64,000 nucleotides of DNA, taken from positions 55,554,001-55,618,000 of the forward strand of contig OZ076409.1 in NCBI GenBank assembly GCA_964187785.1, read 5' to 3'. The position numbers and the translations under genes are program-made. Each line of letters begins with the position of its first letter. Positions within the stretch are counted from its first letter, which is position 1. The notes under the pieces are model-generated. The model saw nothing but the letters and a program-made list of their open reading frames with translations. It made no database searches and was not told where the DNA came from. This DNA is from Amphiscolops sp. MND2022. Taxonomy: Eukaryota. This document shows positions 7,817-50,416 of the stretch, piece by piece.

Positions 7817-7832
7817 GAAACTTTATTCACCT

Positions 7833-10800
7833 ATACTGTTGCTGAACTACTCCGCCATCATCTAGCTCCACAAGCCCATGAGCAGTCAATACAGCACAAG
7901 TTGCTACTAAGGAGTCGACACGGCGATCATCCGACCCACTATGGATAAGGATCGGATCGAATGGAGTCCAACTCAAATGCTGGGGCCACGTACGCTGCCA
8001 CAATCCGCTCAATCCACGGCATATACCAACTAACATTTTCTGGACACATTTGTAAAAGAAAGGCAGTTGAGTACTGATTTCGAAACGGAAATACTGCTCG
8101 AAATGTAATCTGTACAAGTTAGAGTCTACGTCTGCATACTCCCGGTCCACATTCGTCAACAAGGCAGCGATCTCATACTCCGCTGGGACACTGTGAACTG
8201 GATAGATAAACCTCATTAGCCCACGCAAAAAGTGAGCCAGTTCTCTTTCCGAGACAATGCCATAATCACGTCCACGTCCACACAAACTAGGACAATGCTT
8301 CACCACTGCAACACAAATACCAAAGAGTCACCCTCCAAACTCTGCACACGGAACCTTAGTTCTATACCCCACCCATAACCTAAGTTCAGTCCATATATAG
8401 CCGAATATACAGCTACACGTACACCCAAACGAGTCTCCGAACAACTACACATAAATCCATACTCACTCAAATCTAGCACAAGGCGTAGAACAGCAAAACG
8501 AGGCCGAATCAATGCATCCTCGAACACCTGACTTTCTAGAAGAGTAATTGGACGCAGTTCGGATGTCACACCCGGTCTATGAGTGCCAAAGTACAGCGCC
8601 AAATCATTTCAGTAGTCCACCACTTCTGCGCAAACGAGTGCAAGTTGAGACACGTCATCTCCACCGAGTCGAATATACTACAAAACAAGAGCACAATCTA
8701 CCCTTTCACCAGAGCCAAACAACCGCAATCCTACACAAATGCTACGGCCTACACAAAAAAATTTCCTATACTAACCCGCCGCAATAAAGGCAACCGATCT
8801 AAGAAACCCTCTTGAGCCACAGACATCAGTCTCACACGAAAGTACTCCAAGACACTGAGGGGATCCAGACCCGCGAACTCTGCAAGAAACTGTTTCTGTA
8901 CCTCATCGAACACTGACCGCTGCGTTATCAACCCTACCACGAGTGGAGTCTTAGGCGATACCACTGCAGCTAATGCCCGCCCAACATGTACAACACCTTC
9001 TACCGCAGTCGTCTTCAATTGGGTCCTGTCTTTAAGACACGCAAGAATTGGGATGACGTTGTTCAACATACGCTTCTCCCATCCAGTTCCACCAGAAACA
9101 AGCACCAGAACCATTGACTTTATGCCATGGACGCCAACGATGTGGAGCTCACCACACCACCGCCAATCACACTGACGGATGCAGACGCCGATACAAGAGC
9201 TTGCTTCAATCAGTGCGTCTAACTGCTTCACTGCATATTGGTATAATCCATACAACACGAGACTCTAAACAGAATCAAACAACCTGATAAACTAGCGAAA
9301 ACTTAACCAAACACAACACTCATACCCAAAAAGCGTAACAATGAACCGATAACAACCACATCACTAGCAAGTTACCTAAGTCGCCCGTACCGTTTAAAGT
9401 AACTGCAAAATTCGATTTTACCTGACACCGAGTGTAGGTCAGGGTACGGCACTCAAAATGAAGTTCGTTTGCCATACAGTCCCTCCATGCGTCCAGCGAC
9501 CGGAGCACCCCATCAAAGGACGTCACGGTCAGAAAACTCGAAACGAAATTACTCAACCACAAGTAATTCACACTTTCGTAATGCAAATGTGGGCGTGCGC
9601 CTTCTTCAGCCTCTGCCTCTTCAATTGCTATTCGCTCCTCCACAGTTAGCTTTAGGGCAGACTCTAGGAAGACCGGCGGTTCGGTCAGCCGGGCACGTCT
9701 AATCCGTCGATCTTCTTCTGCAGATACTGGCCTGCAAGACTTGTCCAGTAATGGCTTGTGTGTCATAATTCTGTACTTTTGTTCTAATCGGGTATGTTCT
9801 ACCCCCTTCCAGTGATCCCATAGCGATGACAGCCGACGCCCTGCAATACTCAGGTCCGCCTGACAAAGCATACACCGAGCGTATCCGTCAATCACCCGCT
9901 TGTTTCGGGGGAAACCATTGAAGGTCCCCACGACGCCAGAAACAAAGTAGGAAGGCTTTAGCGTCTTGATCTTCCGGGCACGAGCTAGAACAAACACACA
10001 CAATGTGTTAAATAGTCCCACATAAACTCAAACTTGCAAAAAAACAAAACAAATTGTCTTGTCTCTTGATAGTCTTAGCATTATTGTTAACTAAAACCCC
10101 ACCCATTATCTTTTGAGATTCTTACCAGATTTAGCAACTGTCACTTTCCCCGCACTGGATGCTCCCGCTGTCGTCCCCTCTCCAAACATGGAGGGAACCA
10201 TCGATGCCGGCCGACTCATGACCGACAAGTCTTTTTGAGCGTCACTTCCACCTTGCACAACACCCACAGACGATGATGATATGAGGGGCACATCCTCCAC
10301 AGGTACGGCTGCTCTCAAGTCACCAGCAGGGACTAAACGGGAAACTGCTGCAGTCAGCTGCCCGACAAACTCATCCACAGCCATTGCACCAACTGTCCCT
10401 AGCTGACCAAGAGTGGATTCGATGGTAGCCTTTACTACGCCGGACAACTCTTTTTCCAGTCGGGCGATTGAAGCAACGACGTCGCTCAGAGTCAACACGC
10501 CCCCACCGCCACACCTGGAAACATTCCACCCAAGGATAACAATGCAGATTACTACACGTCGCGCAAACGAGATCAAATCTCGACGCCAACTCTAAACAAC
10601 TGACACGCCGTACAGAGTAATAACGGTTATGCTACACCTTCGTTACAACAATGGACCAGTTAGCGAACAGACCTACCAGTTTGGCTGTACACATAATTCC
10701 GGAGCCCAGTCTCGACGGCACTCACGGGAGACTCACCTACTGGAGGCTCATTCTGTTGGAGCATTCGACGTAGAACGGCGACGATATCGGTCAGACTCAA

Positions 10801-10850
10801 AGCTTCTGCAACACACACAGTACAACCTAACCTATGGGTATCATTAGCAA
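7833..10850 (-). pseudogene. Spliced hAT-transposase-derived gene of element A, copy 2 (truncated at both ends)
   Basis: Frame-preserving GT-AG introns at 10125-9985, 9421-9265, 8775-8678 and 8466-8306. Zn finger CMLC..DHWKGVEH. A TGG (copy 3) is TGA near 8610. Confidence 0.75.
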
Positions 10851-18224: not shown

Positions 18225-19451
18225 GTTGTAACTGGCAAAAACGTAAACAAATTCACTACAAACTCTGAGTTGAACTTCATCTCACTGGGGCCAGCGAAAT
18301 TGGATCAACTTACTTTCAGCAAATTGACATGATTCGGAAACTGTGAACAAAATCCCTGGTCACATGCGTCTGGAAAACGAAGGCAATGTCACTGCAGTGA
18401 GAAGGCTTGGCAAAAAATTGAATCCGGCCAATGTCGCACCTAGAGGTTGTCGTCCCTTATTGATTACTACATCAAATAGTCATTTTCTACAAAATTGTTT
18501 CGCCAGAAGTCACTACCTGAAAACATATACTGATCCAGTGTATGTCAAGAAGTTCTTGATACCTAGAGAACGCAAAATTGAGAAAGCTGTACTGAAAAAT
18601 GTTATTCTTTGGTGTCGGAAGGTAAAAAGAGAGGATTTCCGCATCAAAATTTTGCAGCTCTTCTACCAAGGCAAACTAGTTCAATCGCGCACGTACTGAC
18701 TAAACTGTCTTTTGGTGAAATGTCAGTGAGTCTGTAGCATTGAAAAGAAACAACATTTGAACAAGTTATGTTCTGTCAACACTGTTTTTTTAGTCTTTTT
18801 AACAAAAACATGGCTCTCAAATGATGTGAAGAATTCTGAAGTTTTTGTGGGCAAGTCTTTCACTGTTATCGCTCGATCTGACCGTTCTTTTGGCTCTCAT
18901 GGAGGTGTGCTGGTTGGTGCCTCAAACGATGTCAATGCGAATATTATGGATGTCACTATTGCAGACTACGAATTCTCTCTACCGTGTGTTGTTGTTGATA
19001 TCAAACATATATGCTTCGTACTTATTTATTTCCCACTTTCTACATCTGAGGTGACTGCTTCAGTGAGTTATCAATGCGGTTTTGGCGATGATTATATTTT
19101 ATACATTCACGGTCATTTCAGTTTTCCTGTTATCGATTGGTCCACACTATCATCTTCAGATACCATTGAGGAAACATTCATTGAAACCTTTGACTTGTTA
19201 GCGGTTTCGCAGTTAATCGACCTCCCTACTCATAAGTTGGGAAATACTCTTGATCTGATTTTAACAAATGACACACTTGCCCTTTCAATGTTCACAAACA
19301 GTTGTTTTCTGATCATTTTCCAATATTATTCCAAACATCTTGTTGCCTGCCTAAACCAGTTTGTAATGAATCGCTCTCCGAATCTTCTTTTGACCAAATC
19401 CTCTTCAATAGTAATCTTGAAACTTTATTCACCTTGAAACTTTATTCACCT

Positions 19452-22400
19452 ATACTGTTGCTGAACTACTCCGCCATCATCTAGCTCCACAAGCCCATGA
19501 GCAGTCAATACAGCACAAGTTGCTACTAAGGAGTCGACACGGCGATCATCCGACCCACTATGGATAAGGATCGGATCGAATGGAGTCCAACTCAAATGCT
19601 GGGGCCACGTACGCTGCCACAATCCGCTCAATACACGGCATATACCAGCTAACATTTTCTGGACACATTTGTAAAAGAAAGGCAGTTGAGTACTGATTTC
19701 GAAACGGAAATACTGCTCGAAATGTAATCTGTACAAGTTAGAGTCTACGTCTGCATACTCCCGGTCCACATTCTTCAACAATGCAGCGATCTCATACTCC
19801 GCTGGGATACTGTGAACTGGATAGATAAACCTCATTAGCCCACGCAAAAAGTGAGCCAGTTCTCTTTCCGAGACAATGCCATAATCACGTCCACGTCCAC
19901 ACAAACTAGGACAATGCTTCACCACTGCAACACAAATACCAAAGAGTCACCCTCCAAACGTTGCACACGGAACCTTAGTTCTATACCCCACCCATAACCT
20001 AAGTTCAGTCCATAACAAAACATACGAATATACAGCTACACGTACACCCAAACGAGTCTCCGAACAACTACACATAAATCCATACTCACTCAAATCTAGC
20101 ACAAGGCGTAGAACAGCAAAACGAGGCCGAATCAATGCATCCTCGAACACCTGACTTTCTAGAAGAGTAATTGGACGCAGTTCGGATGTCACACCCGGTC
20201 TATGAGTGCCAAAGTACAGCGCCAAATCATTCCAGTAGTCCACCACTTCTGCGCAAACGAGTGCAAGTTGAGACACGTCATCTCCACCGAGTCGAATATA
20301 CTACAAAACAAGAGCACAATCTACCCTTTCACCAGAGCCAAACAACCGCAATCCTACACAAATGCCACGGCCTACACAAAAAAATTTCCTATACTAACCC
20401 GCCGAAATAAAGGCAACCGATCTAAGAAACCCTCTTGAGCCACAGACATCAGTCTCACACGAAAGTACTCCAAGACACTGAGGGGATCCAGACCCGCGAA
20501 CTCTGCAAGAAACTGTTTCTGTACCTCATCGAACACTGACCGCTGCGTTATCAACCCTACCACGAGTGGAGTCTTAGGCGATACCACTGCAGCTAATGCC
20601 CGCCCAACATGTACAACACCTTCTACCGCAGTCGTCTTCAATTGGGTCCTGTCTTTAAGACACGCAAGAATTGGGATGACGTTGTTCAACATACGCTTCT
20701 CCCATCCAGTTCCACCAGAAACAAGCACCAGAACCATTGACTTTATGCCATGGACGCCAACGATGTGGAGCTCACCACACCACCGCCAATCACACTGACG
20801 GATGCAGACGCCGATACAAGAGCTTGCTTCAATCAGTGCGTCTAACTGCTTCACTGCATATTGGTATAATCCATACAACACGAGACTCTAAACAGAATCA
20901 AACAACCTGATAAACTAGCGAAAACTTAACCAAACACAACACTCATACCCAAAAAGCGTAACAATGAACCGATAACAACCACATCACTAGCAAGTTACCT
21001 AAGTCGCCCGTACCGTTTAAAGTAACTGCAAAATTCGATTTTACCTGACACCGAGTGTAGGTCAGGGTACGGCACTCAAAATGAAGTTCGTTTGCCATAC
21101 AGTCCCTCCATGCTTCCAGCGACCGGAGCACCCCATCAAAGGACGTCACGGTCAGAAAACTCGAAACGAAATTACTCAACCACAAGTAATTCACACTTTC
21201 GTAATGCAAATGTGGGCGTGCGCCTTCTTCAGCCTCTGCCTCTTCAATTGCTATTCGCTCCTCCACAGTTAGCTTTAGGGCAGACTCTAGGAAGACCGGC
21301 GGTTCGGTCAGCCGGGCACGTCTAATCCGTCGATCTTCTTCTGCAGATACTGGCCTGCAAGACTTGTCCAGTAATGGCTTGTGTGTCATAATTCTGTACT
21401 TTTGTTCTAATCGGGTATGTTCTACCCCCTTCCAGTGATCCCACAGCGATGACAGCCCACGCCCTGCAATACTCAGGTCCGCCTGACAAAGCATACACCG
21501 AGCGTATCCGTCAATCACCCGCTTGTTTCGGGGGAAACCAACGAAGGTCCCCACGACGCCAGAAACAAAGTAGGACGGCTTTAGCGTCTTGATCTTCCGG
21601 GCACGAGCTAGAACAAACACACACAATGTGTTAAATAGTCCCACATAAACTCAAACTTGCAAAAAAAAACAAAACAAATTGTCTTGTCTCTTGATAGTCT
21701 TAGCATTATTGTTAACTAAAACCCCACCCATTATCTTTTGAGATTCTTACCAAATTTAGCAGCTGTCATTTTCCCCGCACTGGATGCTCCCGCTGTCGTC
21801 CCCTCTCCAAACATGGAGGGAACCATCGATGCCGGCCGACTCATGACCGACAAGTCATTTTGAGCGTCACTTCCACCTGGCACAACACCCACAGACGATG
21901 ATGATATGAGGGGCACATCCTCCACAGGTACGGCTGCGCTCAAGTCACCAGCAGGGACTAAACGGGAAACTGCTGCAGTCAGCTGCCCGACAAACTCATC
22001 CACAGCCATTGCACCAACTGTCCCTAGCTGACCAAGAGTGGATTCGATGGTAGCCTTTACTACGCCGGACAACTCTTTTTCCAGTCGGGCGATCGAAGCA
22101 ACGACGTCGCTCAGAGTCAACACGCCCCCCACCGCCACACCTGGAAACATTCCACCCAAAGGATAACAATGCAGATTACTACACGTCGCGAAAACGAGAT
22201 CAAATCTCGACGCCAACTCTAAACAACTGACACGCCGTACAGAGTAATAACGGTTATGCTACACCTTCGTTACAACAATGGACCAGTTAGCGAACAGACC
22301 TACCAGTTTGGCTGTACACATAATTCCGGAGCCCAGTCTCGACGGCACTCACGGGAGACGCACCTACTGGAGGCTCATTCTGTTGGAGCATTCGACGTAG

Positions 22401-22929
22401 AACGGCGACGATATCGGTCAGACTCAAAGCTTCTGCAACACACACAGTACAACCTAACCTATGAGTATCATTAGCAATGTCTAAAAGTCTATCCAAGGTA
22501 AAAATTCCCGGGATGTTCTTTCAGTCGTGACGTTGGTAACTACACTACACAAATACCAATGCCACAAACACTCCAATTACCTTGACGAGCTTAGCCCTAA
22601 TTAAAAATCACCCAATAACGAACTCGTAGAAAGACCGTCTCAATAGCCGAAAAAAAATGACAACTACGGATTTACTTACCGAATTCGCTGGACAGAGCTA
22701 TGTCCAACAACGTCAACAACGTAGTCGCAGCCTCTACATTGGATGAATTCACACGCCGAGCAAACTGGCAGCATAATAATTGCCTCTCTCCTTCCAACAA
22801 CGCATCAACTGAGGCTTGGAAATCCTCTTCATCGGATAACTGCTCCAGATTGGACATCTCAGCTAACGCACCTTCTGCGGCTATCACAATCGATGCGACT
22901 TCTTCTTCAGATAACTCAGCTGATAACAT
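19452..22929 (-). pseudogene. Spliced hAT-transposase-derived gene of element A, copy 3 (most complete; 3' end cut by the duplication breakpoint)
   Basis: Exons ..22304, 22218-21751, 21607-21045, 20887-20399, 20300-20090 and 19924-19452 join in frame through GT-AG introns of 85, 143, 157, 98 and 165 bp. BED-like CxxC..HxxxxxH finger; VCAEVVDYWNDLALYF helix. The first exons are less certain. Confidence 0.8.
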
Positions 22930-24909
22930 TCAAGTAAAAGCCGGAACTAATCATGAACAACGAATGGCGAACGAGACAAAACGGTCTATGGCTGTAGAAT
23001 TCGCGATCAACCAGGCTTCAGCGTCTTTGACGATACGAGATGTGGACTAATCACCCACACCCTCTGTGTTCACAAGGCATCGAAATATCACAAAGAGAAT
23101 TTTCAACCGAATTTACTCGAAAATAGTTCACTCGGAAAAAATTCAGGCTCAAAGAACGCTTTCGTTCGAATACTAAAGATCGCCGAAACCTACTCATAAA
23201 CAAAAAAAGAAAAAAACAACACCGAAAAGCAAAGTTAACAAGAAGACAAAATGCCAAATTCGAAAGTCTTAATACCCTGCAAGTGAGTTTCCACGCAGAG
23301 CAACCTAGATGCAGATAGTATCACTGAACCGATTTCCTGCTAGTCAAGCTACATCCACCTGGTATACCGCTAACTGGACAATAACAACTTCAATCAACAA
23401 CTAAATCAATCGCAACCAAGCTTACTTCCTTCTCTCGTATTTGGCATCGACGAAGATTTGTTTACAAAGCGCACGATGTTCCACTACATTCACTTCCAAA
23501 CAGTTACCGAATTAGCCGAGTAATTATATCACGCTGCCACGTTCGATTAATTTCCGGCAGATTCATTCTTACTTAAACTCTTACTGCAAACATCGCTCAC
23601 AATTGGATGACGTGGCTACTCTCGCCACATCGACTCTACATTTGCTCTTTACCGAAGTGGATCAATCAACGCGCTAATTTTATTCTCTTCCTCTCGCTTG
23701 CTGAACTGAACCGAAGTAACCGTTGGTTCCAACCAATCCGACTATTTCCAGCCATGAAGTCGACTCGTCTTTGCCGATGTGGTTGCTATGCCATCATCCG
23801 CAACAAACAATGCAAACGTAGTTGAAGTCACTACATCAGCCGAATAACCTTCGCAGCAAGATTAGGCAGCTATCACTTACTTCACACCTGATGCTGCTAC
23901 ATTTACCACACCTCCCCGCTACCAGCCTTCTAAATACCCCTGCATTCCACTTTTCCTTTTAAGGAGGGGGAGTGTCATGCCGGAAGCATGAATGAAACTG
24001 ATAAAAAACATTCTAAACATTAAAAATTCAGTTAAATGTAATACTCTTGATATTTCAATAACCATGAATTACCATTGAACAATGACGGGCCTATCCTATC
24101 ATCATCACTACTTTCCAAGAATAAAATCGATTTGTAAAGGTTGGCATCATTTACTCATTACACGCTACGTACAAGTGCTTTCATCATATTTAACTTCATC
24201 AGTAATCTGTAGTTTTATATATAACAATGGTATGACACCATCATCATAGATTCAATTTGTATCAACCAACGCAATACTAAAGTGATAGTTGATTCATGTA
24301 ACCATGGTAACATATCGACGCTATCTTTTGTACCAAACGCCATTTACGTTGCTACCAACAGGACGCACGATTTAACACCTAATCAATAGCGCAATACTAT
24401 TGGTCAATGCAGTCACGTGACCAGCTTTAGTGTAAATTGCGACAAGTGTTGAAATACCTTCAGTACAATTTACCTTCAGCTAACGTAGTGTTGCTTACCT
24501 CATTGACTTACGCAAAACTTGATATTCACATTTTCAACTTGATCAATAAACCTTTAAAACAGCAATTCCTTTCGACGATTTTGAAGATGGTCAATACTAG
24601 ATCTCAAAACGTAGATAGTTACGCAGCATGTTCCAGCGCAATGGAACAAAACAGTGACAATGAGAGCGAATATAATTTCCGTAACACGTTATCACGAAAT
24701 CAAATGAACGAATTCGAGAATGGAGATTTGATCAACGTTAGACATAATTCCAACCTAAAGTTCAGTCGACCAGCGTTTCATGGAAATGAACAGACAAATC
24801 AATGATTTACCAAGTATTGTGTTAGCCCTTACTGAGAAAATTTCATCATCGACAACCGAATGTAGCGGACTCAACACCGTTACTAATACGAACGTGACCC
24901 GTTCTGACA
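19452..24909 (+). mobile_element. Gypsy-type element A, 3' portion, copy 3 (LTR 23973-24909)
   Basis: PPT followed by a TGTCA..TGACA LTR, with the antisense gene upstream. Confidence 0.75.
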
Positions 24910-26067
24910 GTAACATATTCCAATATGATCGTAAGTATGTCGTGGTAGTAAGAAGCTCAATTTTGACTGGCCATCGACTAGGATGAAAATCAAGACATGA
25001 TGTTCCGTATTTCAACCTAAAAAACGTCATCTTGTTGTACAATCGTCTTCGTGTAATATCATATAGACTCAATTGTGGTGTCTCAATTGGATGTCGAGGT
25101 ATTTCACTATTGGGGCAGTCCCCTTAGTGCTCAAAAAGCGCAGTCTTTTATAATTGCTCGTGTACTTGTGTTTTAGATGGTTCTGTTATATTTTAGATTC
25201 GAGACCACGGCAAATAATTTACGAAAGGCGATGAATTAAAATGAGTCAAATCATCAGAGTGGATTTTGGAAAAGTTTGAAGCAGTGTATTAGGTTTTGTT
25301 CAAATTTTAAGTCGGAATAATCTTTAAAGTGGTGTAAAGTATCAAAAGTGTTTAGTTTACTTGTGGAAATGAGAAGTGGATATTAAGCTCCTATAATCCA
25401 CTTAGAGTGTTGTTTAAAATGAAGAGTTTTATATATTTTTTTCATATTTTACATTCTTTCATTCTCATAGAGTTCGAGTAACAAATTTTCCATCTTCGAG
25501 CCAAGTTACTAATTGTGGAGTTCTAGTAGTTTCTGTCAAGGTTACAGTCAAGTTGAGTTGCTCGAAGGAATGTATTACCTTGAGAAAGATGTTTTCAATT
25601 TGCAAGTATAGAGTTTGTCAGTTGTTCAGAGAAGTATGTTGGTTGTTCATTTTGTTTCGAGGTTTTTGATTGGCAAGTCTTTAATTTAAATTTAAGAATT
25701 ATTGAATTGACTTATCGAGACCAGTTTACGTTTAATTCCTGTTATTTCAGCACAGCGTTGTAGTTTTATAAACACACTCAAAAACAGATTTCATCGATGT
25801 GATCTAGGAACATTTCAAATTTTGAGTGTCATTGTTGTTCACAATTAGTTCACACTCGGCAGGTTCACACTTGTAGTTGCACTTGGCAATTAAAACTTGG
25901 AGAGTTGATATCCAGTTTTCATCCAAATGAGAAAGTTGAAAGAAGGTGAGTAAGCTCCTGGTTAGTTAGAAGACTTGGAATTTTAAATCCTTGTGGGACC
26001 AATTTGAAATATTCGAGAGTTTTTGCTTAGTGTGAATTTTCAATTGAATAGTTTCATTTTGTATGTT

Positions 26068-31614: not shown

Positions 31615-31664
31615 AATTTTTGTTGTTAAATATATTCCGTATTTGGAATTGAGTCTTTTATTAT

Positions 31665-31954
<290 letters not shown>

Positions 31955-36018: not shown

Positions 36019-37953
36019 TGTCATGAACATTACGATGTATTGTATCACCGTGTTCATTATTGAGGGTAGTTCTAGTTTTCGCATTATACTGAACTTCGGA
36101 ATAACTTTCCGGTCTCTCGTCGGATCTCCCCCATCCCCTTCTAGTCTCTTGTCCTGAACCGGCCATAATAACGTTTTGAATTTGTGGCAAAACTTGGTTA
36201 TTGATGGCATCACTTATGGCTCTCTGGATTTGAGAACTAACGCTGTTCATCATCTCATCCATCTCCCTAGATATTCTAGAGTTTAGTTCACACGATAACT
36301 TATTGATCTCAGCTTGAGAATCTATACTCGCTGTGGTTCGGTCGTAACCGGCACTAGTCCCAGTTTCGGGATTTCTATGATCAGAATGGAGATTCATTTC
36401 CTCATTTTCTAAGTTATTGCTTGTAACACTTTCCTGCCTTCTAATGGAAGTTCCATCGAGGCTTTCGTCTCTCCTCATGACATTGAAGTGATTTTCACCT
36501 AACATTATGTCAAGGTTTTCAATGTCAGAGAGAATCTCTAATCCTCTAGATTTCCTTGCCTTCTTTTGTTTTCTAGTAGTAGGCATTAAGACTAAACCGG
36601 GTTGAATAGTTAAATTATTAAAACCGGAAAACAGAATTGATGTTAACGAGAAAGTGTTATCAACTGAATATTAGGAGCAAAACAAAATTGTGTCCACCCA
36701 AAGGAAGTTGCCCCTATATATACTTCCTTGGGCGGGATAAACATGATGCAAACAGCCAAAAAATGTTACAAACACATTCCGAAAGCACCTGACTTAACTC
36801 GACTATGCAAGCATCAAAGTGCCGCCGAATCGTGATCGTAAGGTCACGCGGCTGATCAAATTCCTGTTTTGACAACTATAACAAGTATTCAAAAGGCACA
36901 CGGTACATCAAATAGCATCGATTAAAATGTTTACGCCGCTAATATTTCAGGAATGCTGACAATCTCGTGTCGGCACGTGCCCCGTTTGCAGGCTAGATCA
37001 ACTTGTATACAGCAATGTTACATGTAACAGCACATATTTTCCTTTATATAATATGCACACAGATTCCACGTGTCAACTAGTAAATATGGTCAGACATGTC
37101 CTTTGGACTAATATTGGTAGCAACATCATACATTGGTATTGATTACACCAATTAATTTCAAAAGTTACATGAGTCTTTACGACGTACTTGTAATTATAAA
37201 TGACATTTAAAGTACACTAAATGATTGTAATTAGCATCTGAATAATAGTATTGAAAAGGGGCCTCAACCGGCAACTGTCCAATTGGTCACAGCAACAGAG
37301 GATAGAAGTCAGGCAAATGGCCTTATTCGGCCTAATATTGGAATGGATAAAATAAAGCGCCAATTAGCTAAAATGAACGTTTAATTAGTACAGCAACGTG
37401 ATTAGACTACTATTGAACGAAACACAACAGTGCTCGCTTTAATATTCTTTCATCTGAACATTAAGGCCGGAACCGGCCGTTTGACTAAAGCGCCAATAGA
37501 TAAAGGTGAAATTCCGGCATATGGCCTAAACCGGCCATTAATTAAATACAGCACTACTATTACTCAAATGGATGAATATGATTGACTAACAGGTTGTGCT
37601 CAAGTGACGTCTCCGGAATTGGAGTTATGTTCACTTGAACTCGTTTCCTTTACGCTTTCTAGCTGCCTATCTATTGCTATAACAGCGTGTTCATACTGCA
37701 CTTCTAGCTCTTACAATTATCAATACAGCATCTGAATTTTCAAATGTTGGCATTAACGGACTAATATCAACAAACTATATACTAAGTGTAAAATTCGCAA
37801 CGATAACAGGTACAACTTGTAGACTAAAAAATAATAGCAAAGTTTGTGTTTTTAATGTTTACCTCTAATATATTGGTAGAGTTCCGGCCGCTATTTCCTG
37901 TCCTTCTGCGGTAGTAGTGATCCTTGTACCATCACAGGCGGCAGCCTGCGACA
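36019..37953 (-). repeat. 3' LTR of element B (1935 bp)
   Basis: Matches 50417-52355 with about 18 substitutions and one 4 bp indel by manual count (~1%). Confidence 0.97.
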
Positions 37954-38650
37954 CTGCAGGTGTTAGGAAAAGTAAGCTTCCTGCGTTCAAGCCATTTTCA
38001 TAAGCCTCTCGTCGTAGGGCGGTAATATAAGCGGGCTCACTGCTAGGTGTCGATCTTTGCATGTACCAGTTCACCTTTTCTGCTTTTATTTGATCTCTCG
38101 ACTTGCCACATACCATACAGCCTGTGTGCAAATTTTGGCTCACATCCTGGTAAGGCTCGATATTTTGCACATGATAGGACGCATAGAAAGATCCAGAGGT
38201 TGACTGCGCAAGAGGGGTGTCAATGCTCGGTCCTCTTTCATGGTCAGGAGGAGACTGTGGGGACTCCAGAACGGGTAATGCAGTTGCACAGAGCTCGACT
38301 TTTGATTTTCTTTGTTTTTTCGATGGGGCCAAGCACATTTCCTTGTTAAAATACTCGAATCCCAGTTTAGGGGTAGAGGGCGGAACAGGCCATGCACTGC
38401 TTGGTCCAGCTGTCATCTCGTCATCTAAATCTTCTGTCGTCATCCCGCGTCTCGCTATAGGGATTGGAGCTGCTTTCACCTCTCGTTCTATTCTTTCTAT
38501 GATCTCTTCTGTATCCGTGGACCAGTCTGAGTCCCAGGAACTTGAGACTTCATTCTCACTGTCACTTGAGATGTAGATAACTGAATCCGCTGAACTTCCT
38601 GAGTCTTCTTCAAGATCAAAGAGCTTTTTAGTTAGGTTATACCTCTGCAT
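37865..38650 (-). CDS. Element B sense accessory ORF, 261 aa, function unknown; ends inside the 3' LTR
   Basis: Uninterrupted ATG ORF; acidic N-terminus with VIYISSDSE, basic KKQRKSK, and CMVC. Confidence 0.65.
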   Translation of the reverse strand: MQRYNLTKKLFDLEEDSGSSADSVIYISSDSENEVSSSWDSDWSTDTEEIIERIEREVKAAPIPIARRGMTTEDLDDEMTAGPSSAWPVPPSTPKLGFEYFNKEMCLAPSKKQRKSKVELCATALPVLESPQSPPDHERGPSIDTPLAQSTSGSFYASYHVQNIEPYQDVSQNLHTGCMVCGKSRDQIKAEKVNWYMQRSTPSSEPAYITALRREAYENGLNAGSLLFLTPAVSQAAACDGTRITTTAEGQEIAAGTLPIY

Positions 38651-39530
38651 TATGAGTTTCTTAGCAATTTTGCTGATTGGGAAAGTTAACTAGCTTGAGT
38701 GAGATTTCAAAGTGGAATGAATTTACCAACTCAAAATTTTAGTCGACTCGGGCCTTTTCCCGGCAATTCGTTTTTGGCGGTCGAGTTATCGGTAAATTGC
38801 CCTGATCCGACGTAAACATTTCTGAATGGAATTTTATAAGTAGTCGGCATCCTTTGATAACTCAGTGTTTACCCCCCATCAGCACCATCACTCTGAGAGG
38901 TGTTAATGACGCTTGAGTTGTAAATATTATCTTCATCCGTTTCAAGTGGGTAATTAACGGTTTGCCTGATAGCAATTAACGACACGCGACGCGGAATTCT
39001 TTCAAAATGACTTCAGCCAATCAGCGTTAAGCTTCGATAAGTTGTAAAATTAAATAATAAAAAATGGCGAAACTAATAAATCCAAATAATTCAAGATGGC
39101 GAAAATTCTAGCTAAGGGTAACTAGGGTAACTGGACAAAACGGCAAAACAAAACAGGGTAAACGGCCATAACCGGCCTCTAACTAAATAAGCTGTAAATA
39201 ATAAAGTTCTTTGTACACTTCGCTGGCAGACTCCATGTACAGAATAAATATGTAGATAATCCATAATATTAGTCTGGTAGTAATCTTCAGCCACGAACTC
39301 CAACTTTCCAATTTCTTCAATTCTTCTACCCAATTTTAATTCCATTTCAATTCTGATTATCTTCCATTTGTTTCCTCTCGACTGATACTCATTTTCCCGT
39401 GCGAGTCACTTCTTAGCCGATTCTTCGTCCCAGAGCAACCCTTGATCCCCTTCTCCAGCCGCTTTCGGCCATATCCATCAACTTCTACAGCCGGACAAGG
39501 ACTCGTTCCCACATCCAATTCAGTCCCAGG
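38651..39530. promoter_or_regulatory. Putative divergent internal promoter region
   Basis: Lies between two divergent ATGs. CCAAT box AGCCAATCAG at 39015-39024; YY1-like AAAATGGCG (39061) and AAGATGGCG (39093). Confidence 0.4.
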
Positions 39531-42500
39531 ATGTCTTCTTCTGAAGGTTGGTTTGTTTTTATTCCGAACTAAAATTTAACTTGATCAGGGTTAAATCCGT
39601 TCACAATATGCTTCCTGTTTCCATTAGTAAACGCGTGATAACACGTTTCGTTCAGATTTTCAAACACTTCCGGAAGTTTTCTAATGCGGTAAAATGGATT
39701 TTTTTCAAGGAAGCTCACCGTCAAATTTCATCTCCTTTTGTTTAGCAAACCAGCCAGGAGACGAACCGCAAACACAAACCAACTCTGCAGCGGACATTCC
39801 CGACCAACATACACAAACGATTGTTTCTGTGGGTACGTCCTCCACCGTCCGTGGATCACAATTGTCTCCTCCTCCTTTTCCTCCAATAAAGCCACCAAGG
39901 TCTCCCAGCAGTACAGACAGCAACGTCGACGTAACATCTTATGCCGACGAAAAGCTTCAGCTCCTCGAACAGGCCCAACAGCAATCAGAGGGACATACTG
40001 CGGAGAACTCTGAGAGAGGAGAACAAGAGACTGGGAGAGGTATAACTGAGGGTCCTTCTTCCACGGGGATCGAGGCACGGGTTACTACGCCGCTCTTTCG
40101 TACTAGTACCCCTACCCCAGGCGTAGCCGGTGAGACCGACGAGCTCATTTTGACTCAGTTAGAGACTGGACTAACGATTGCTCCTTCCTCGAGGACTATA
40201 TTACCGGAATTGTTGCCCACTAACGTGACTCCTGCCGAAATGTCTGCAGCCTCATTTCTCCAGATTGAAACGGACGAAAGCTCTTCCCTATGTGATGTCC
40301 CCAAGCTGCCAACAGGAACACCAAAGGTCAGGTGGTTGGGCGATGAGACTGGAACCGAAGAAGCCGGTGACACATCTAGCCAGGCTAGTGCTCCTCAATT
40401 GTACGCCTACCTGCCAATAGGTAATGTAGCAGACACAGCAGGAGAAGGGTCATCAACTGATACTTTCGCTGCAATTCCTGATTCCATGCGTCCTTCCACT
40501 TCAGCAGCTCAGGACCCCAAGATCAGGGAGCTTTCCGGCCGTAGTAGGGCCATTTTGAAACAGTATTTCGATGATGATGCCAGCACTATCACCTTCCCGC
40601 TCGGTCATAGAACTGTGGCGTTCACGGAGCCACAAATCTATCATCTCCTAAGGGTCCTTACAGACGAGACCTTGAAAATGTCCTACTCCACCATGGAGCA
40701 GATGGTAATCGGAGCGGTTAGGGGGGCCCCCGTCACTTCCAGTACCCGAACTGACCACTTCAAGATCCGACCAAGGGCTCAAACTCCCGGCCCAGGGCTG
40801 CAAAGTGATTCGGAAGATAGTTCGCGGGCTGAATACTGTTCTGGATCAGGGACTGACACCTCTGAAGGATCCAGTGCTGGCCAAGAAAGTAGAGGGTTAG
40901 AATCTTTCAACGAAACTGACAGTTCTGGTGAGATGGCACTCATCTCACAGGCTTTCAAGGAACCTTTCAGCCGCGTTCCACCTTCTCGAGCCGACCCTAC
41001 CCAAGCAGGTTTTGAGTCCACTGATCAATCCAGTCTCGACGCCACGCTCTCCGAATTACGTACCCAGACGGCCCCAGCACAACCTCTAGTTTCGAGTTCT
41101 GGCAAATTGCCCAAGAAGAAATGGCGCGGCCATACACGGGGCATTCCCATGAAGGAGGAATTCTTCTCCAAAATTGGCTGGACCCGATCGTTCATCTCCG
41201 GGCCAGCTGATCCCCTTCACAATCCTTATATGGTGTGGTGCCATATATGTAAGAAGAATATTTCTGTGAAAACCAAGGGTACACTGGAGATTCTGCGTCA
41301 CCACAGAACTGAAAAACACCTCAGACGTGATCAAAGGTGGCGCTATGAACACCTCAAAAGCGTTGATCCAGTGACTGGGAAAGTGCAGCATCGGGTCAGA
41401 GGGCGGAACGGCAAGATCCTCACCAAGATTGAGCTGGCGAAAGAACTCCCCAAATTTATACACGTCGAACTAATAGACATCGGAGAACGCTTCCCATTCT
41501 ACGACGACTTCGTGAAAGGGACGTCAACCACACTCGTCACTCCTGCGTCGAGGGCCAAGACACAAATACACCTCATTGGAGACTTCGTGCAAACTCACGG
41601 TGATCTTGGAGTACTCCGCAGACTATGGGCTCAGATAGGATCTCTGACGAACTATCAAACTAGTTACTGCGACTTTGATTGGGGGGAAGAACGAATTTCG
41701 GTAGGTTCCCTTTCAGGCTAACATTTACTCAGGGAGGGTATAGATTCCCTACACATTTCATAATTGTCTTTTTCTTCTTTAGACCATCTTCCAACACATT
41801 TTCAATTGTGCCATGAGTGAATTAGCAGAGCAAATTGCTACCACCCAATGCTTCGTTATCGAATTTGAGAATGTGGGCGTGAATAGGCTCATGTCTATCA
41901 AGTTCTGGAAAGGCTATTCTCTTTGTCGCGTCTTTGTGTGCCGAAGTGGGCTTCCCTCCGCTGATCTGACTGGAGACTTGGGTTCGATATCCAGACTACT
42001 ATCTGTGGTTTCAACCAAAGCCGATATCGTCGCCTGTTCGGGATGTCCGGTAGAGTTGATCCAAACCATAGATCACAATGAGTTCTTTCCCCGAGCAGTA
42101 CAGAGTTGCTTTCGTTTTGAGCAGCTGCAGCTTCAGAAGATGATGCACAAGCCCACCTACAGCGTGTTTGGACGAATCGATTTTTTCTCTGTCCTAAAGT
42201 GCCTGATCGTTTCATTGGGAGCTGCTACTGGTGAGGACTGGGTTCTGGAATCTCCTGATCTGGGAAGAGTAAGTATATTAAGTTCACTCATGTAGTTAGA
42301 GGTTTGAAGGTAGGTGCAGTTGAGAGACAATTTGATTCATTTAAGGCCATCGACACCTGCAAACTAGATTTGTCAAGCCTCCCCAGTCTTTGCCGAGAAC
42401 TTGTGAAGAATTGGAAGGCAATCAGACAGTACTTGACTACGCACACCCCTCACCAAGGAATGCAAGGAGTCCACAATCAGGTCCAAAGCTTCGAGTGGGC

Positions 42501-43854
42501 CATCATCTGTGACTTCTTCTTCGTCGCTAAATTGGAATTCTTCCAACGTATAATTGGCGATTGTGAGTATACGGTTTCATTTCACGTCAGTGCACTAAGA
42601 CGTCGTTCTGATAATTTAGGTCCTTGAGTTGTTGAATCACTATCAACATTGTCTCGTTTGTATATCCTATTCCTCTCATAATCACGACTGTTGTATTTCA
42701 GACGTTACCAGTTTCGCCATCAATCTGCAGGGCCGCCGTGATGCGTCGTTCTTCCTCTGCGGGGAGGTTTGCCGCTTTGTTTCAAAACTGTGCGCCCGAT
42801 GTTATTTGCCAGAAACCATTCCCCTCGAGAACTCGTGGTTCCTTCTTCTCGGGTTTAAGGCGAGCGAGGGCAAATTCATGAGTGAGGAAGACTTCCTTAT
42901 CCGGCACCGTCTCACAAACCGGATAGCTACAGCTAGTAAACAGAGTGCAGAAGTCACACACCTGAACAAGAAATCGGAGAAGGCTGCTATCGAGAAGACG
43001 GCTGCAGAAACGACCAGCAGCTTTGTCAAAGAGGCGTTGCAATTCATTCAATATCTAGTCAAACAAGTCCTTAGTCAAGCTGGTCTGAGCTCTGAAGTGA
43101 TAAAGGGGTTGGCTGCTTTTGATCCCTTCGTGCTTTTCAAAAGGCCTTCTGAGGTCGGGCTCCGGCACTTCGATGTGCTATATTCTACTTTCCAGCTTCG
43201 ATCATGGGTCACTAGCGCCAACGAGAACAGTTGTCGAGACGAATATCTGGCTCTGTTGGACTACCTCCGAGTCAACTATCCTCCAGATTTCGATCTGATG
43301 GAGAATTCCGTCGATCTTATAGACTTTTTAATGGGGCTTAAGTTTTTCCAAACTCATGAGCACTTGTTCTATCTGTTCAAACTCTGCTGTGTCTGACTAG
43401 TGTTAGCCCCCAATATCCCCCAGTACTGTTCGGGAGTGTTGACACAACGGGGTGTCAGGGCCGTTTTGCCGATCTAGTGGTGCCTTGCCAGAGTTACCTT
43501 TCCTGTGTGCCCAATTCCATTTCCCATTGCTGCTCGGATGTCAATTTAGAGAAGTTCTCAGTTCTCAGTTCCTCTTTCGAGCGTTCTGCTTTCTCTGCTG
43601 ACTACGATCCGTGGACCCTTGTGGATGAGTTTGGTAGGTCTAAGATCTACAAGAGTCTTCTCACTTCCTATAAGGCCGTTACTGCTGTTCCTTCTACTCG
43701 TTCTGTCCGGATAGAAAAGGATACTGCCTCGTCCATCCCTGATGATTCAGCTGTAAAGGTGCCTTCCAAGAAGCAGAGGAAGCGAGCAGGTAGCAGCAGT
43801 TCTACAATTTCGTCTGCATCCAAGAAAGCCGTTCAAGGGTCCTCTAAAGACTAA
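39531..43854 (+). CDS. Antisense five-exon gene of element B: inactive hAT-transposase-derived protein, ~1275 aa (one frameshift near 43391)
   Basis: Exons 39531-39546, 39746-41700, 41783-42268, 42346-42562 and 42702-43854 join in frame through GT-AG introns of 199, 82, 77 and 139 bp. Zn finger WCHICKKNISV..RHHRTEKH. hAT-like blocks LCRELVKNWKAIRQYL, AKLEFF, LSSEVIKGLAAFDP. Confidence 0.8.
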
Positions 43855-44085
43855 ATGTACATATGTATTTATGTACTTTCAGACTGTAAACTTTGTTCAT
43901 TTCTTTCATTGTTTTCTTTTCTCATTTGTTCTTGATTTTGTTTCTTCGTTGCCTTGATCCCATATTTATTCCCTTTTTGTATGGGATCCTTTGAAATGCC
44001 CCAGTACTTATTCAAAAGAAATTCTCAGAGGGGCTTAAAACAAAGATAAAAGAAAAGAATTCCCATTTCCGGGAAAATTCAATCC

Positions 44086-47000
44086 TTAGTATCTGAAGTC
44101 TTCTGAGTAGTTTGGGTTAGGGTTAGGTCTGAGGTTATATTTCCCTCCTCTAGGGCTCAGACTTTCAGTTCTAGCATCGTTTTCAGATATTTCGGGCACG
44201 ATAATATCATCCCTCCTTTTCGGAGAATTTTGTGCATCGATTTCAGTTCTAAAATTTTCATCGGGTAAAATTTCTTTGTCTTTTAGGCTCTCTGCCGTAT
44301 CCGGCAAAGATTTTTCATGGCTTTTTGGGGAAATGGCCGGATTCGGCCAATCAGGTTCTTTATTTCTAGACTGTTCACTAGCTTCATTTCTTGTAGTGAC
44401 GTCATCAATTAATCGTTCATTCCGGCTATGCGACGCACGATCGGCAAGATTTGATTCATCACTCGTGATTACATAATCCACTTCATTCTCGTGTGCGTGA
44501 CTTGTATTCGGTTGTGCCGCATTCGGTTGTTCGCCATTCGGCACGCTAGTCGGAATAGGCTCGTTGTCTCGTGTACCTAGCTGCTCGCCAAAATCTGTTT
44601 CCCACGCTATGACGTATAGGTCATCTTGCGGAATGACAATTTCTTCGTCTGACTGCAGACGTTGTTCTCGGAAATTATCCTCAAGCGGTTGATTGGGGAC
44701 GAACTTCTTAAGGCGAATGCGATGCAAAATTTGAGTTTTGTTCGTATTGATCCGTCGTACTATATAGTTTTCATTTGGCAAAACTTTTTGGACTACAAAT
44801 GGTCCAACCCAACGGTAATCGTGGAATGGAATTTTTGATCCCTGATGATCCGCTTTTGGCTGTAAGACGAAACAGTAATCATTCTCCTTCAACGGAGCAG
44901 CTTTTGCTTTGCGGTCGTAATATTCTTTGTACTTGATATACGACTGCATAATGTTCTGCTTCGTTTTGTCAATTAGGATTTTTGTCCGGTTTTGGACTTC
45001 TTCAGCAAATTCGGTTGTGGGGTTGATCTGCTCATTTGGATTATTTCCAAGTTTGTGATCCAAGATATTAAATGGAATTCTTCCATGGAATACTCTCGTC
45101 GGTTCACAACCGATGCTGGCGTGATAACTAGTATTATGATTCAGTACTGCTAATGGCAAGTATTTGTGCCATTGTCGGCGATATTCCCCACATGCCATTT
45201 TGAGATTTGTTTTCAATGAGGCATGAGTTCGCTCCAATTTCCCAATTGTCTGCGGGTGTTTTGTCGTTGCACATTTGAGTGTGATGCCCAAAATCTGCGT
45301 AACCTCCGCAATAATTGTAGAAGTAAATGCAGTACCTTTATCAGTGATAAGAGTCGTTGGTAGATATGAGTGTTTAGTCATGATGTCCATGAGCGCTTTT
45401 GCTACATTGATCGCTGATGTGTCCGTAAGGGGATAGGCGAACAAATATCTGGAGAATACATCAATTGCTGTTGAGACGTTTTCATACCCACCACTTGGGG
45501 GAAGATTCGGCAATAGGTCTATTTGCATGGCGTCTTCAGGTCCGAGGTCCCATTCGGGCAAGTTGAGCAGCTCAGGTGTGATCGTTGCGTTAGGGACTCT
45601 TTTGTCTCTGGCACATTGTTCGCACCCTTCTACCCACTTTTTGACGTGTTTAGCCATGTTAGGGTAGTAATACCTCTGTCGAATTTCCTGCAGCATTTTT
45701 GAAATCCCAGGATGTTTATGCGCTGTCCCATGAAGGGATTGGAGCAATTCCTGGAGTAAATGTTGCGGGAGTAGAATTTGATGGTATTTAACATTCCCTG
45801 TTTCATCGAAATATTGCCTTGTCAGGATTTCGTCCTTTAGTACAATTCGTTCCAGATTGTTTGCGTAATGTCTATATCGGGCATCCTGGTGTAGTAGATT
45901 TTCTGAATACTCTTCATGAAGCAGTTTTGCTTTCAATTGTTGTAGTACCGCATCCTTGGATTGCTCGATAATGATCTGGTTCGTTCTCCTCAATCGGACT
46001 TGTATATCGGGGTGTTGCTTGACCAGATTTGTTGACAGAGTTTGTATAGTAACAGTGGGCTCATCAGTTGTTGGATTTTTCCTAATTGCTTCTTTTCTTG
46101 CCCAATACTGTTCCTCTGTCTGGTCGTCGTCATTGGTGTAGAAGATTTGTTCTTCTTGCGTCACACCTGCGGATTGGACGTTGATTTCGATTGGTAGTGT
46201 TTGTACATCTTCACGAATTTTCATCACCAATTTGTCCTTTGGATCTGCTTCCAATCGGGACAAATAGTCGGCGGCTGTATTTTGTGCCCCTGGGATGTGT
46301 GCTATGACAAAGTTGAACTGAATGACATAATCACACGCGTTCCACAGGGCTGGGGGTATTATTTTCGTTTGGAAAAATCTCGTGACAGCTTTGTTGTCCG
46401 TAAGGATGATGACCGGTTTCGGCGCACCCCAGAAGATATGTCCGAATTCTTTGAATGCAAAATAAATTGCAAGGAATTCCTTGGCATAAATTGACATCTT
46501 GATCTCTGCTGGGGTGAAAGTTTTTGATCCATATGCGACCGGTGCATACGATTTTCTGAGTGATGTAAATTTCTGACTTGGGTCGTCTTCAATTAGGACC
46601 GCGTACCCGGCTGCACCAAAACTTGCATCAGTCATTAGTGCTATTTGTTTGTTCGGAATGGGTTGTTGTAGGGCCAGGTCGCAACATTTGTCTAGTGCTC
46701 TATTGATTTCTTCGAATTGTTGGACTAATTCTTTCGATACTAGGACCTTTTCGTCACTTTTGAGCATCTTGTAGAATGGAGCAAGGCGTTCGGAGAGTCT
46801 TGGGACATAATTCCTGTAATAGTTTAGGAATCCCAAATAGCGCTGTAAAGCCTTTTTCGACTTCGGGAATTTGGTCTTTTCCAGAAAGTTTTGCACGTTC
46901 TGTTTCTGAGGTTTGACGCCTTGTGGGGTAATAGTTCGTCCGAGAAAATCAATTTCTTTTGCACCGAAGTGACATTTGTGCATTGTCAACTTAAGGCCTG

Positions 47001-49300
47001 CTTCCTGAATGCATTTGAACGTGGCTCTCAGGTTCGTCATGAGGTGGTCGACATCACTGGCTGCGATGCCGATATCGTCCACATACTGGGCACACTGATC
47101 CGCTTTAATGACTTTGTCGAGGTATTCCCTCATGAAACTCGAGAATGCGGATAGTGACCGACTAAGGCCTTGTGCCAAGCGTCGGTAAGCGAATGAGCGA
47201 CTGGCAAAATTGAAAGCCAACATTTCGATTGAGCGTTGGTCGGCCATTGGTAGGCAGTGGTATGCCTGCGAACAGTCTAATTTACAGAACAGTTTTTTGC
47301 CTGCCAAGTGTTGGGCGGCATCAACTAGTGTACTGACGGGATGATTGTTGTTGATATAATCATCTGAGATGAGGTTGTTGATTTTTCTCAAGTCAACCAA
47401 GAGTCGGAGTTTCCCGTTCGGTTTCTTCTGTGCAAATATTGGACTCGCATATTTTGAGAACGGTAGGGTGGTGATGATGCCATATTTGTGTAACATGGCT
47501 AATTCGACTAGGATGTCCTCCTTCAAATTGATAGGAGCTGGAAGGCTTTGACTATAGGCTGGGGAATTGTCCTTAGGTGTCAGTTTCACTTTGAATTCCT
47601 CGTTCATGCCTATATCAAATCGGTGTCGTGCAAAGATGTCATGGAATTCCACTAACAATTCCTCAATTTTCTCCTTTTCTTCAGGAGTAAGGGTGGAATC
47701 TTTCCAGTCGAAGTTTTCTAAGAATTTTGCACGTGATTCTGCATCTGTGGTGGGGTCGAGTGTCTCCAGGTTCTGTAAGGCCTGTAACTCGCGTAGGATT
47801 CGTTTTTGTATAGGTGTGTGTTCCTCAGGATTTCCAGGGTTTTCTGGAGTTGGGAACCAATAATTTTCGGAGTTTTGTGGATTTCTATTGGTTTTGATGA
47901 GACTGCTGAAATAATGGGCTGCTTGCTCCTGGTCATTCTGCAAAAGGTGCCAGGTTGATGCCGGGTCTACCGGTTTGACATACTTCATCTGTTCTGGCGT
48001 CATGACAGAGAAATTGGCAATATGTAGTCCCTTTTTGAGTTTATAAGGGTGGTCTGTGAAATTGTTCACTGGTATCAATATATTGCCGTCATTCAGAGTG
48101 ACCAAAGCTGGGCAAAATGTGATGTCGCCTTCCTCATGTAGAAGGTCGCTCGGCTGCAAAATTCCAGTGACAGCATTCTCAGGGTAGAGTAGGGAATTGG
48201 TCCTAATTAGGACTTTATCATTTGGTGGAATTGTTATCTCAATAGGGTTGAGAATTGGTTCTAATACATTTGAGTACTTATGGTCAGCCGTTTTGAGCTG
48301 CATTGAAAAGAAGGGGAAATTCAGTATCCCTTGTCTCATGTCCAGCACTGTATGATTTCTCTGAAGGAACATTAGTCCAATGATTGGTCCTGTCAAATGT
48401 TCCATTACTATAAAGATTTCATGGAACTCAATGTCACCAACTTCGAATTTGAGCTCGATGGTACTCTTAGGAGTTTCCAGTTGCCCATTAGCGACCATGA
48501 TTTGGAAGTTCGGAGGCGGACCTTCTCGGATAACAGATTGTGGAGATAGAAGGCGGATTTTCCGGAGGTCCATTTCAGGGATTGCACTGGACAGTGCTCC
48601 AGTGTCTATTAATCCATCAATGGTCAATTCCCCAAAGTCCATTGGGAAATAAAGCATGCGTTTCTTGCATTTGAGGTTGATGTTGGTTGACAGGGGTATA
48701 CAGTCTGGTTCACCATCTCTGGTGATGAGTACATTTTGGAATTGTTTTTCATCTAATAATGATTGTGGCGTGGATTCACCACTGTTTTCAGGGTTCTCGG
48801 TCCCCAATGGGTTTGGGAACACTGGGTGGTTTGTACCATCTTTCATTTGCCAGTTTTCGATTAGTGCTCGTGTTTTCTTGTTATGGGTAATTGGGGGGTT
48901 CTCGTGGACTGTTCTGTTATAATAGTCAATATCGTCCAGGACATATTGAAATTGCAGTGAATCTTGGTTGTAAAGCTCGGTGTCCCAATAGGGATCTCTG
49001 CCGTAGTCTGGATCGATGTATGTTGGATTGTAATCATCGATTAGGGGAATGGGCCTGAAGCGGGTGGTGAAGGTAGTGGTGTAATCAGGGTCCCAAACAG
49101 GAATTGGTTTCTGGAATAAATGGGTGTTTTTTGTAGGTGATGATGGTAGCTTTTTCCATCTGCTGCTGCCAGACAACAGAGTGATAGCCCATCAATTGCT
49201 GATTGTATTGGTGGAAGGTTTGCGTTGGAGGGTCCGATCTGATGTATTGTCGGACAGATATTAATTCGTTATATTGGAGTCGTGGCGAAGTTAGTTTTTT
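44086..49300 (-). CDS. pol: Pol polyprotein of element B (protease, RT, RNase H, integrase)
   Basis: LIDTGA; QYVDD; MTDASF..GY; integrase H..H..CEQC, IDL, ITDKG, LERTH and GPF. Open for 1696 codons. The -1 frame upstream is offset by one base, probably at the homopolymer 49127-49132. Confidence 0.97.
49294..49300 (-). promoter_or_regulatory. Predicted -1 ribosomal frameshift heptamer A AAA AAC
   Basis: Directly before the gag TAA; the -1 frame is open (KLTSPRLQYNELISVRQYIRSDPP...). Confidence 0.7.
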
Positions 49301-50402
49301 GACTCATCATTAGGATATGAGGATTGGGAGCTCGATGATGTCGGTTTGGTCTGAGGTTTCTGAGCCTTTGGATTGGGCTTATTTTCAGTTGAGTCATCAG
49401 GTCTAGTGCGTTTGGGTTTAAGATGTGCACCAGCACCTTGCCAACATCTCTCCTCCGGGTGGTTCTTTTTCCCACAAGTGCCACACTCCGGATATGTTTT
49501 CTTCTGTGTCGACTTGCCTTGTTGGGCATCTTTTTCTTTTTTCTTTTTCAGTTTTTCGCAGTCCTTGACCATGTGGCCCTTTTCCTTGCAGTAATTGCAA
49601 GTGATATCGGACAGTTGCCCTGTGGACAGAGGAGTTTTAGGTTTTGTAGATGAGGAGGTCATTGTGGCCATTGGTAGGTCATCTGATTCCTCAAGGGCAT
49701 TGAGTTCCTACTCTCTCTCCAAATGAGCAACAATTTCATCATATGAGCCATTTTCTAATCTGGCCATGTTGACAGATCGCTTCAACTTAGGTGGCAGCTT
49801 TGCGTAGAGCAAGCTGTCAATCATTTTCTGTGCATGATCGCCAAACGCTTTCTCGGCTCCCCGGTTCAATTCTTCGAGACAATCAGGCAGTTTCATCGTA
49901 TTGGGATCGAAGACTAGACGGTGCCATTTATGTTTGGCAGTCGCCTGTGACTCGGGCTTGACGTATTTCCGTCTAAAGATGACTAATACGTCCTCTAGAG
50001 TTTGTCGGTTGCTTGAGCTGATATTTCTGAACGTCTGGAGAGCATTCTTCCTCAATAAAGAGTGGAAGTGATTGATCTTCATTTGCTCAGTCATTTCTGG
50101 CTGCATCTTGATCATAGTGTGAAATAGGTCTTCGAACAGCTCGAATTTCTCACTTTTGCCATCGAATGTCATGGTATTTGAGTTGACTGGGCGTATGGTG
50201 AGTTGTTGGGCTGTCGGTCTATTTTGCATTGTAGTCAAGACGTCTGCCAGTCGGGTGATGGGGTCGGAGTCAGCAGCCGTAGCGATTCTCTCTTGTGCTG
50301 GGATCGTCGTGTCGAGGTTGATGTCCTCGAAGGACCTGTCGAGATGATTTCTGGATGAGATTCGTCCTGTGAGAAACTCAGGAAATGATTTGGAGATTCG
50401 TT

Positions 50403-50416
50403 GTCTCCTGTCACCA
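50403..50416 (-). promoter_or_regulatory. Primer binding site of element B (TGGTGACAGGAGAC)
   Basis: TGG immediately after the 5' LTR CA; priming tRNA not identified. Confidence 0.75.

Follow-up and report, generated by a model that had tools for sequence, protein, structure and literature searches.

A spliced antisense gene of probable hAT transposase origin in Ty3/Gypsy retrotransposons of Amphiscolops sp.

Two Gypsy elements and their antisense genes

The window, that is, the whole stretch of 64,000 nucleotides analysed here (Amphiscolops sp. MND2022, contig OZ076409.1), contains two Ty3/Gypsy elements, A and B, each with a multi-exon gene on the opposite strand. Element A lies on the plus strand, and its antisense gene runs on the minus strand from 22929 to 19449 in seven exons, with GT-AG flanks at all of them and 836 open codons. 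The features of both elements are as follows.

22680..22929, minus strand: A exon 1, with the start codon at 22929 and a phase-1 donor (supported by donor and acceptor counts in 20 copies)
22304..22432, minus strand: A exon 2
21751..22140, minus strand: A exon 3, the low-complexity N-terminal part
21045..21607, minus strand: A exon 4, with a C-x2-C-x9-G-x6-H-x5-H finger at ~21417-21497; its end is shared intron 1
20399..20887, minus strand: A exon 5, 489 nt, aligning with the RNase H-like core of relatives; its end is shared intron 2
20090..20300, minus strand: A exon 6, 211 nt; its end is shared intron 3
19449..19924, minus strand: A exon 7, truncated, where the element breaks off and adjoins LINE-like sequence with a 15-nt duplication
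23961..23972, plus strand: polypurine tract of element A
23973..24909, plus strand: 3' LTR of element A, TG...CA
7830..10850, minus strand: second A gene, partly deleted, within the tandem array
36019..52355, minus strand: element B, a full-length Gypsy element with a 5-bp target duplication
39685..41700, plus strand: B finger exon, a long low-complexity N-terminal frame followed by the finger; 5' limit undefined
41783..42268, plus strand: B exon of 486 nt
42346..42562, plus strand: B exon of 217 nt; in most relatives a phase-0 intron divides it 135+82
42702..43854, plus strand: B last exon, with a frameshift near 43390 in the window copy
37865..38689, minus strand: second accessory frame in element B, in the same orientation as pol

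The window copy of A is a fragment that ends at 19449 against LINE-like sequence, within a tandem array occupying the first 30 kb. Position 19452 is accordingly a break point rather than the end of the gene, and full-length A copies have a last exon of ~450 codons. The segmental array (window 1-30132) is built of units of ~10-12 kb with 97-99% identity, which contain the truncated A element and a LINE-like fragment; within it there are also a frame encoding a PHD finger (26008-26598) and the LTR/gag start of another family (26440-26931). A long trinucleotide-type repeat is present where the LINE-like sequence ends (window 31593-32012).

The preliminary description had paired three introns of the A gene (21044-20888 and 20398-20301, both phase 0, and 20089-19925, phase 1, on the minus strand) with three of the B gene (41701-41782, 42269-42345 and 42563-42701, on the plus strand). 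The six junctions that it quoted are all present in the sequence, and its lengths for the internal exons are right, with 489 and 211 nt for A against 486 and 217 nt for B. Upstream of these, the A gene has three more introns, all of phase 1, whose donors read GT at 60/60 sites and whose acceptors read AG at 57/60 across 20 copies of the family.

In a DNA search the A region had 45 matches. When the 10 kb upstream of 20 dispersed near copies of A were searched, gag-pol was found on the strand opposite the gene in 18, with colinear pol matches (tblastn); one of the remaining two had an LTR and gag only, and the other had neither. Likewise, pol was detected in 14 of 15 divergent A-type loci (L045 having none within 7 kb), in 12/12 B-type loci and in 10/10 loci belonging to two other families, D and E. 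The proposed linkage of the A gene to Gypsy pol is thus borne out in the fuller A copies. Across families A, B, D and E, 54 of 57 copies have the gene on the strand opposite Gypsy pol, a count that is uninformative on gene-less elements because the 57 were picked by presence of the gene. The families bearing it have at least 150 scored matches each.

The features found are those of Ty3/Gypsy elements, namely a PR-RT-RH-IN pol, TG...CA LTRs, a primer-binding site, identical in A and B, and target duplications, of which a 5-bp example surrounds the dispersed A copy L028/L039. A polypurine tract precedes the 3' LTR in A, whereas a purine-rich tract is absent at this junction in 13/13 B copies (37953-37975; L096-L107); there the sense frame's coding sequence takes up the junction. 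The antisense gene lies between pol and 3' LTR, where additional ORFs are found. An env-like ORF was rejected as an identity for it, since it is on the strand opposite gag-pol in all linked copies.

The LTRs of element B (50417-52355 and 36019-37953) are 98.9% identical, and its pol (44086-49191) forms a frame of 1,701 codons in the order PR-RT-RH-IN (Pfam). Unlike the window copy of the antisense gene with its single frameshift, L060 and others have an open last exon. The second accessory frame of B, of 270-300 codons, is head-to-head with the antisense gene and extends into the 3' LTR; it contains a C-x2-C motif and has no Pfam match. It was found in 13/13 B and 4/4 D/E copies examined (L096-L111 and the window) and was not found in A. 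The gag frame begins within the LTR (window 50417-51044, minus strand; 24431-24909, plus strand), its start preceding the primer-binding site by ~200 codons in B and by >100 in A-type elements, so that each LTR copy contains the beginning of gag. Just outside element B lies a piece of a host gene, an exon with two calcium-binding EGF domains (35277-35726, plus strand). A third, decayed Gypsy element, C (55667-62548, plus strand), has an RNase H ~27% identical to that of A-type elements; C, taken as 55667 onward together with L044, gave no match to the accessory gene profile.

Common origin, selection and inheritance

No A-gene/B-gene pair was listed in a self-BLASTN of the window, and the spliced window proteins are 23% identical over 472 columns, in agreement with the earlier impression of absent DNA similarity and low protein identity. 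The protein alignment, which had been suggested as a check, is nonetheless significant by BLASTP (E 4e-10), by Smith-Waterman score (132, against 38.8 +/- 4.8 with a maximum of 62 in 300 shuffles) and by profile comparison of 17 A-type with 22 B/D/E-type rows (541 columns, probability 97.9, E 6.7e-13), the reversed-sequence and integrase controls for the last giving E 0.29-0.88. Mapping of the introns onto a 16-row alignment in three MAFFT modes gave identical columns for introns 1 and 2 of A and B; intron 3 is offset by one codon, with equal phase. The finger spacing C-x2-C-x9-G-x6-H-x5-H is common to both, and its Cys and His residues are invariant across all families. These comparisons support descent of the two genes from one ancestor.

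Intron length and sequence vary between copies, and exon lengths are invariant. All splice sites are canonical in 11/15 A-type and 11/12 B-type loci, and in the D/E loci intron 2 is canonical in 10/10 and intron 1 in 9/10. For the core, with non-canonical or frameshifted loci excluded from the spliced profiles and from dN/dS, the median dN/dS was 0.05 in A (9 measurable among 78 pairs) and 0.03 in B (4 measurable among 55), most remaining pairs being saturated at synonymous sites. These ratios of 0.03-0.05 show, at the level of codon substitution, that the gene is under strong purifying selection. Together with the canonical sites and fixed exon lengths they uphold the view that splicing and translation have been selected for. 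One apparent loss of intron 1 (L087) turned out to be an imprecise deletion that removed the acceptor.

The number of introns varies, where three had been supposed: A has six, and most B and D/E genes have a fourth. This fourth intron, of phase 0, is present in 9/12 B-type loci and in D/E loci. It is missing to the base in window B, L060 and L062, which cluster (support 82) inside intron-bearing B rows, and it is missing in A-type genes too. From this distribution, the fourth intron is judged to have been lost precisely in the window's B lineage. Exact intron loss normally requires a spliced RNA template, and the loss would therefore indicate, indirectly, that the gene is spliced.

Trees of RT and of the accessory gene were built with FastTree; in these unrooted trees, from which gene-less relatives are absent and in which joins among families may be affected by long branches, A, B, D and E each occupy one side of a branch, with support of 94-100 for RT and 99-100 for the accessory gene. 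The A vs B split received 100/100 in IQ-TREE as well; window A and L045 were left out because they have no pol. Identity falls from D/E vs B (pol ~70%, finger 45-52%) to A vs B (pol 43%, finger 22%), and the total divergence of the accessory gene is several times that of RT.

Within families the two genes part company. L068 and L069 have an accessory dS of 0.09 against an RT dS of 1.96; conversely, window B and L070 have an RT dS of 0.23 and a saturated accessory dS; and L061 and L063 share 99% of the accessory protein with LTRs at 55%. Over 78 B pairs, the rank correlation (Spearman) was 0.03 between accessory gene and RT and 0.35 between accessory gene and LTR. As far as these divergences tell, the gene is exchanged among subfamilies independently of RT and LTR, and between families it is vertical. 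The proposal of vertical inheritance consequently stands between families, where RT and accessory splits are congruent, and fails within them, where dS values do not match. A single capture defining a clade of elements fits the data, as tested from gene to pol. The simplest reading of the sequences would be one ancient acquisition with cassette exchange afterwards.

Relationship of the protein to hAT transposases

No Pfam family was found for any exon, and the finger has no PF02892 match; the best PDB sequence match of the finger profile was the BED finger of ZBED2 (E 0.77). At E 0.001 the finger-exon profile retrieved 480 protein clusters, and most full matches stop at the position of intron 1; P0146, P0232 and P0254 read through it and stop at the position of intron 2. 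Homologue searches gave only unnamed proteins of the same kind. In a search of the genome P0147 had no match at E 1e-60 and P0254 had one, at 28%, which suggests that these two proteins come from other organisms. One scan of JGI metagenomes returned no relative.

The relative P0232 was placed by the ESM Atlas with DUF4371 / FAM200-ZBED5 RNase-like families (0.90-0.95, 10/10 in one clan), and the window B exon alone with the same group (0.81-0.85). A structure model of P0254 had a mean pLDDT of 68 and a pTM of 0.38, with pLDDT 70-80 over the core. Its five best Foldseek matches were all Hermes transposase (E 1.7e-3 to 5.3e-3), and a segment of it, residues 204-292, can be overlaid on RNase H-like cores with Z up to 7.8, an rmsd of 2.8 and 80 aligned residues; these fold matches are weak (TM ~0.2, Z <8) and were obtained with a relative whose identity is 24-35%, so that the RNase H-like fold is seen in P0254 rather than in A itself. 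The last-exon model (pLDDT 53) had no meaningful fold match, and no Pfam match to the PF05699 dimerisation domain was found in 10 last exons.

Profile comparisons with hAT proteins were without significance beyond the finger: against five hAT transposases of the genome and the core of P0261, E was 0.09-0.42. A search for a donor among 14 hAT loci of the genome gave no match. Open Ac/Hermes-type hAT transposase frames of 597-697 codons are present in the genome (L088-L092). The unnamed protein P0261 (1,059 aa) has, ahead of a hAT-like region, five fingers with the spacing seen in A and B, and searches for its relatives returned P0261 alone.

In a register set by known hAT motifs and by superposition on integrases, the first and fourth core strands end in Glu/Val/Thr and Ser, not Asp, in the 16 rows, and the protein is read as catalytically dead. 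With no conserved Asp of the DDE triad at the expected strand ends, it falls outside the active hAT transposases. The same alignment has several invariant acidic residues, and the active site may have been remodelled. Structure-model and language-model leads, on which the hAT link rests in place of a significant sequence alignment, indicate that the protein is probably a hAT derivative that has retained the zinc finger and fold and lost catalysis.

Proposed role and wider context

The overall explanation that we favour, and hold to be reasonably likely, is that a captured hAT-type gene has been kept as an antisense DNA-binding helper of the element. An ancestral Ty3/Gypsy element would have acquired a hAT-type transposase gene, reversed, between pol and the 3' LTR, and retained it. 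An antisense promoter of its own, within the 3' LTR or close to it, would drive the gene, and the host would splice the resulting transcript, which would then be translated. Splicing acts by strand, and introns read on the opposite strand are not removed; since the genomic RNA is the other strand, the introns would outlast retrotransposition.

A nuclear factor binding DNA or chromatin would fit the invariant finger, the kept fold and the lost catalytic residues; it would promote transcription of the family or shield it from silencing, in trans. We regard this role as a serious candidate with a little less than an even chance of being correct. Action in trans on related copies would allow alleles to be swapped between subfamilies. 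Binding to subfamily-specific LTRs is not supported, given the modest accessory-LTR correlation and the lack of motif arrays in B LTRs or spacers (k=7, without a shuffle control). A more detailed version is offered tentatively: the retrotransposon lineage may, as hosts do, have domesticated a DNA transposase for its own use, the spliced antisense gene serving in transcription or against silencing, being traded as a cassette and having its mRNA occasionally copied back. Such copying of spliced mRNA into the element would then account for the loss of an intron to the base in the B lineage of the window.

A role in integration is an unlikely alternative, with the protein as a cofactor attached to integrase or the ends of the cDNA and guiding them into the nucleus or to target sites; a transposase-like fold would suit the holding of DNA ends, basic clusters provide candidate nuclear signals and the gene co-diverges with RT and IN at the level of families, but it reassorts freely against both within families and has diverged far more than RT. 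We find it rather doubtful that the protein or an antisense RNA acts as a brake, repressing the element or its competitors in the manner of retroviral antisense proteins or of a dominant-negative transposase directed at hAT transposons. The antisense position would permit double-stranded RNA (PMC7264820), many diverged alleles exist side by side and the genome contains hAT elements; against this, the carrier families are abundant, the protein is unlike the resident hAT transposases examined, and the strong selection is at the protein level, for which RNA alone is insufficient.

The origin itself could be read differently, as another RNase H-fold protein such as a duplicated integrase or a host gene. 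The highest Z scores belong to integrases and actin-fold proteins, Hermes being missing among 50 rows, and a significant sequence link to hAT is lacking. We nevertheless consider such an origin improbable, as the finger is C2H2 and BED-like rather than HHCC, the profile gives E 0.29-0.42 with the elements' own integrase, and Atlas and Foldseek both indicate hAT. Full transposase-like length and some invariant acidic residues might recall an active DNA transposase providing a second way for the element to move, but this is very improbable with expected strand ends devoid of Asp and with element ends that are LTRs with 5-bp target duplications, not hAT-type ends. Independent chance insertions or a functionless passenger, for which the low A vs B identity might speak, are refuted by the dN/dS values and by the shared introns, site and orientation being likewise equal in four families.

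In layout, the antisense gene described here has counterparts. Antisense ORFs between pol and the 3' LTR are known in plant Gypsy elements, including Retand (TRP28/PF04195), Grande (gene23) and RIRE2 of rice; their origin is stated as unknown, without similarity to other transposons, and gene23 of maize Grande has been reported as nuclear with its own promoter (PMC7264820; PMC11963269). The present gene resembles them in position, antisense orientation, presence in most copies and a proposed nuclear regulatory role, and differs in its 3-6 introns, its hAT lead and a host that, as the EGF exon indicates, is not a plant; the word 'intron' does not occur in PMC11963269. In Botrytis, brtn is an antisense gene in the 3' region of the Gypsy element Boty/BcGypsy1 (cited in PMC8365987 and PMC7264820). 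The protein there is a small zinc-cluster one, in contrast to the ~1,100-1,300 aa, BED-like finger and RNase H-like core found here. Among animal Gypsy elements with captured genes, bdelloid LTR elements carry extra ORF3s of DEDDy and GDSL type (PMC5408684) and Burro carries accessory domains (PMC6431247); in the sections of these papers available, neither is described as a spliced antisense gene or as transposase-derived. The multi-exon antisense transcripts of Arabidopsis Copia elements are non-coding, according to the part consulted of bioRxiv 2024.04.02.587720.

With DUF4371 / FAM200-ZBED5 hAT transposases the protein has finger spacing, RNase H-like core and overall size in common, and it differs in having no catalytic Asp at the expected places and no Pfam match. 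ZBED, GTF2IRD2 and DAYSLEEPER are catalytically dead host derivatives of hAT transposases; here, by contrast, the gene is kept by a retrotransposon in many copies, not by the host. Our literature search, with subscription journals and Repbase outside it, turned up no LTR element whose antisense gene is spliced and derived from a transposase. The layout is known from plant and fungal Gypsy elements; what would be new is the probable DNA-transposase origin.

The origin and job of antisense accessory genes are open questions in PMC7264820 and PMC11963269, and a class II transposase is a candidate origin. The present case offers hundreds of natural alleles under measurable selection, a record of intron gain and loss within a retroelement and a protein with a putative DNA-binding finger. 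If the regulatory role is true, transposase domestication would not be limited to hosts.
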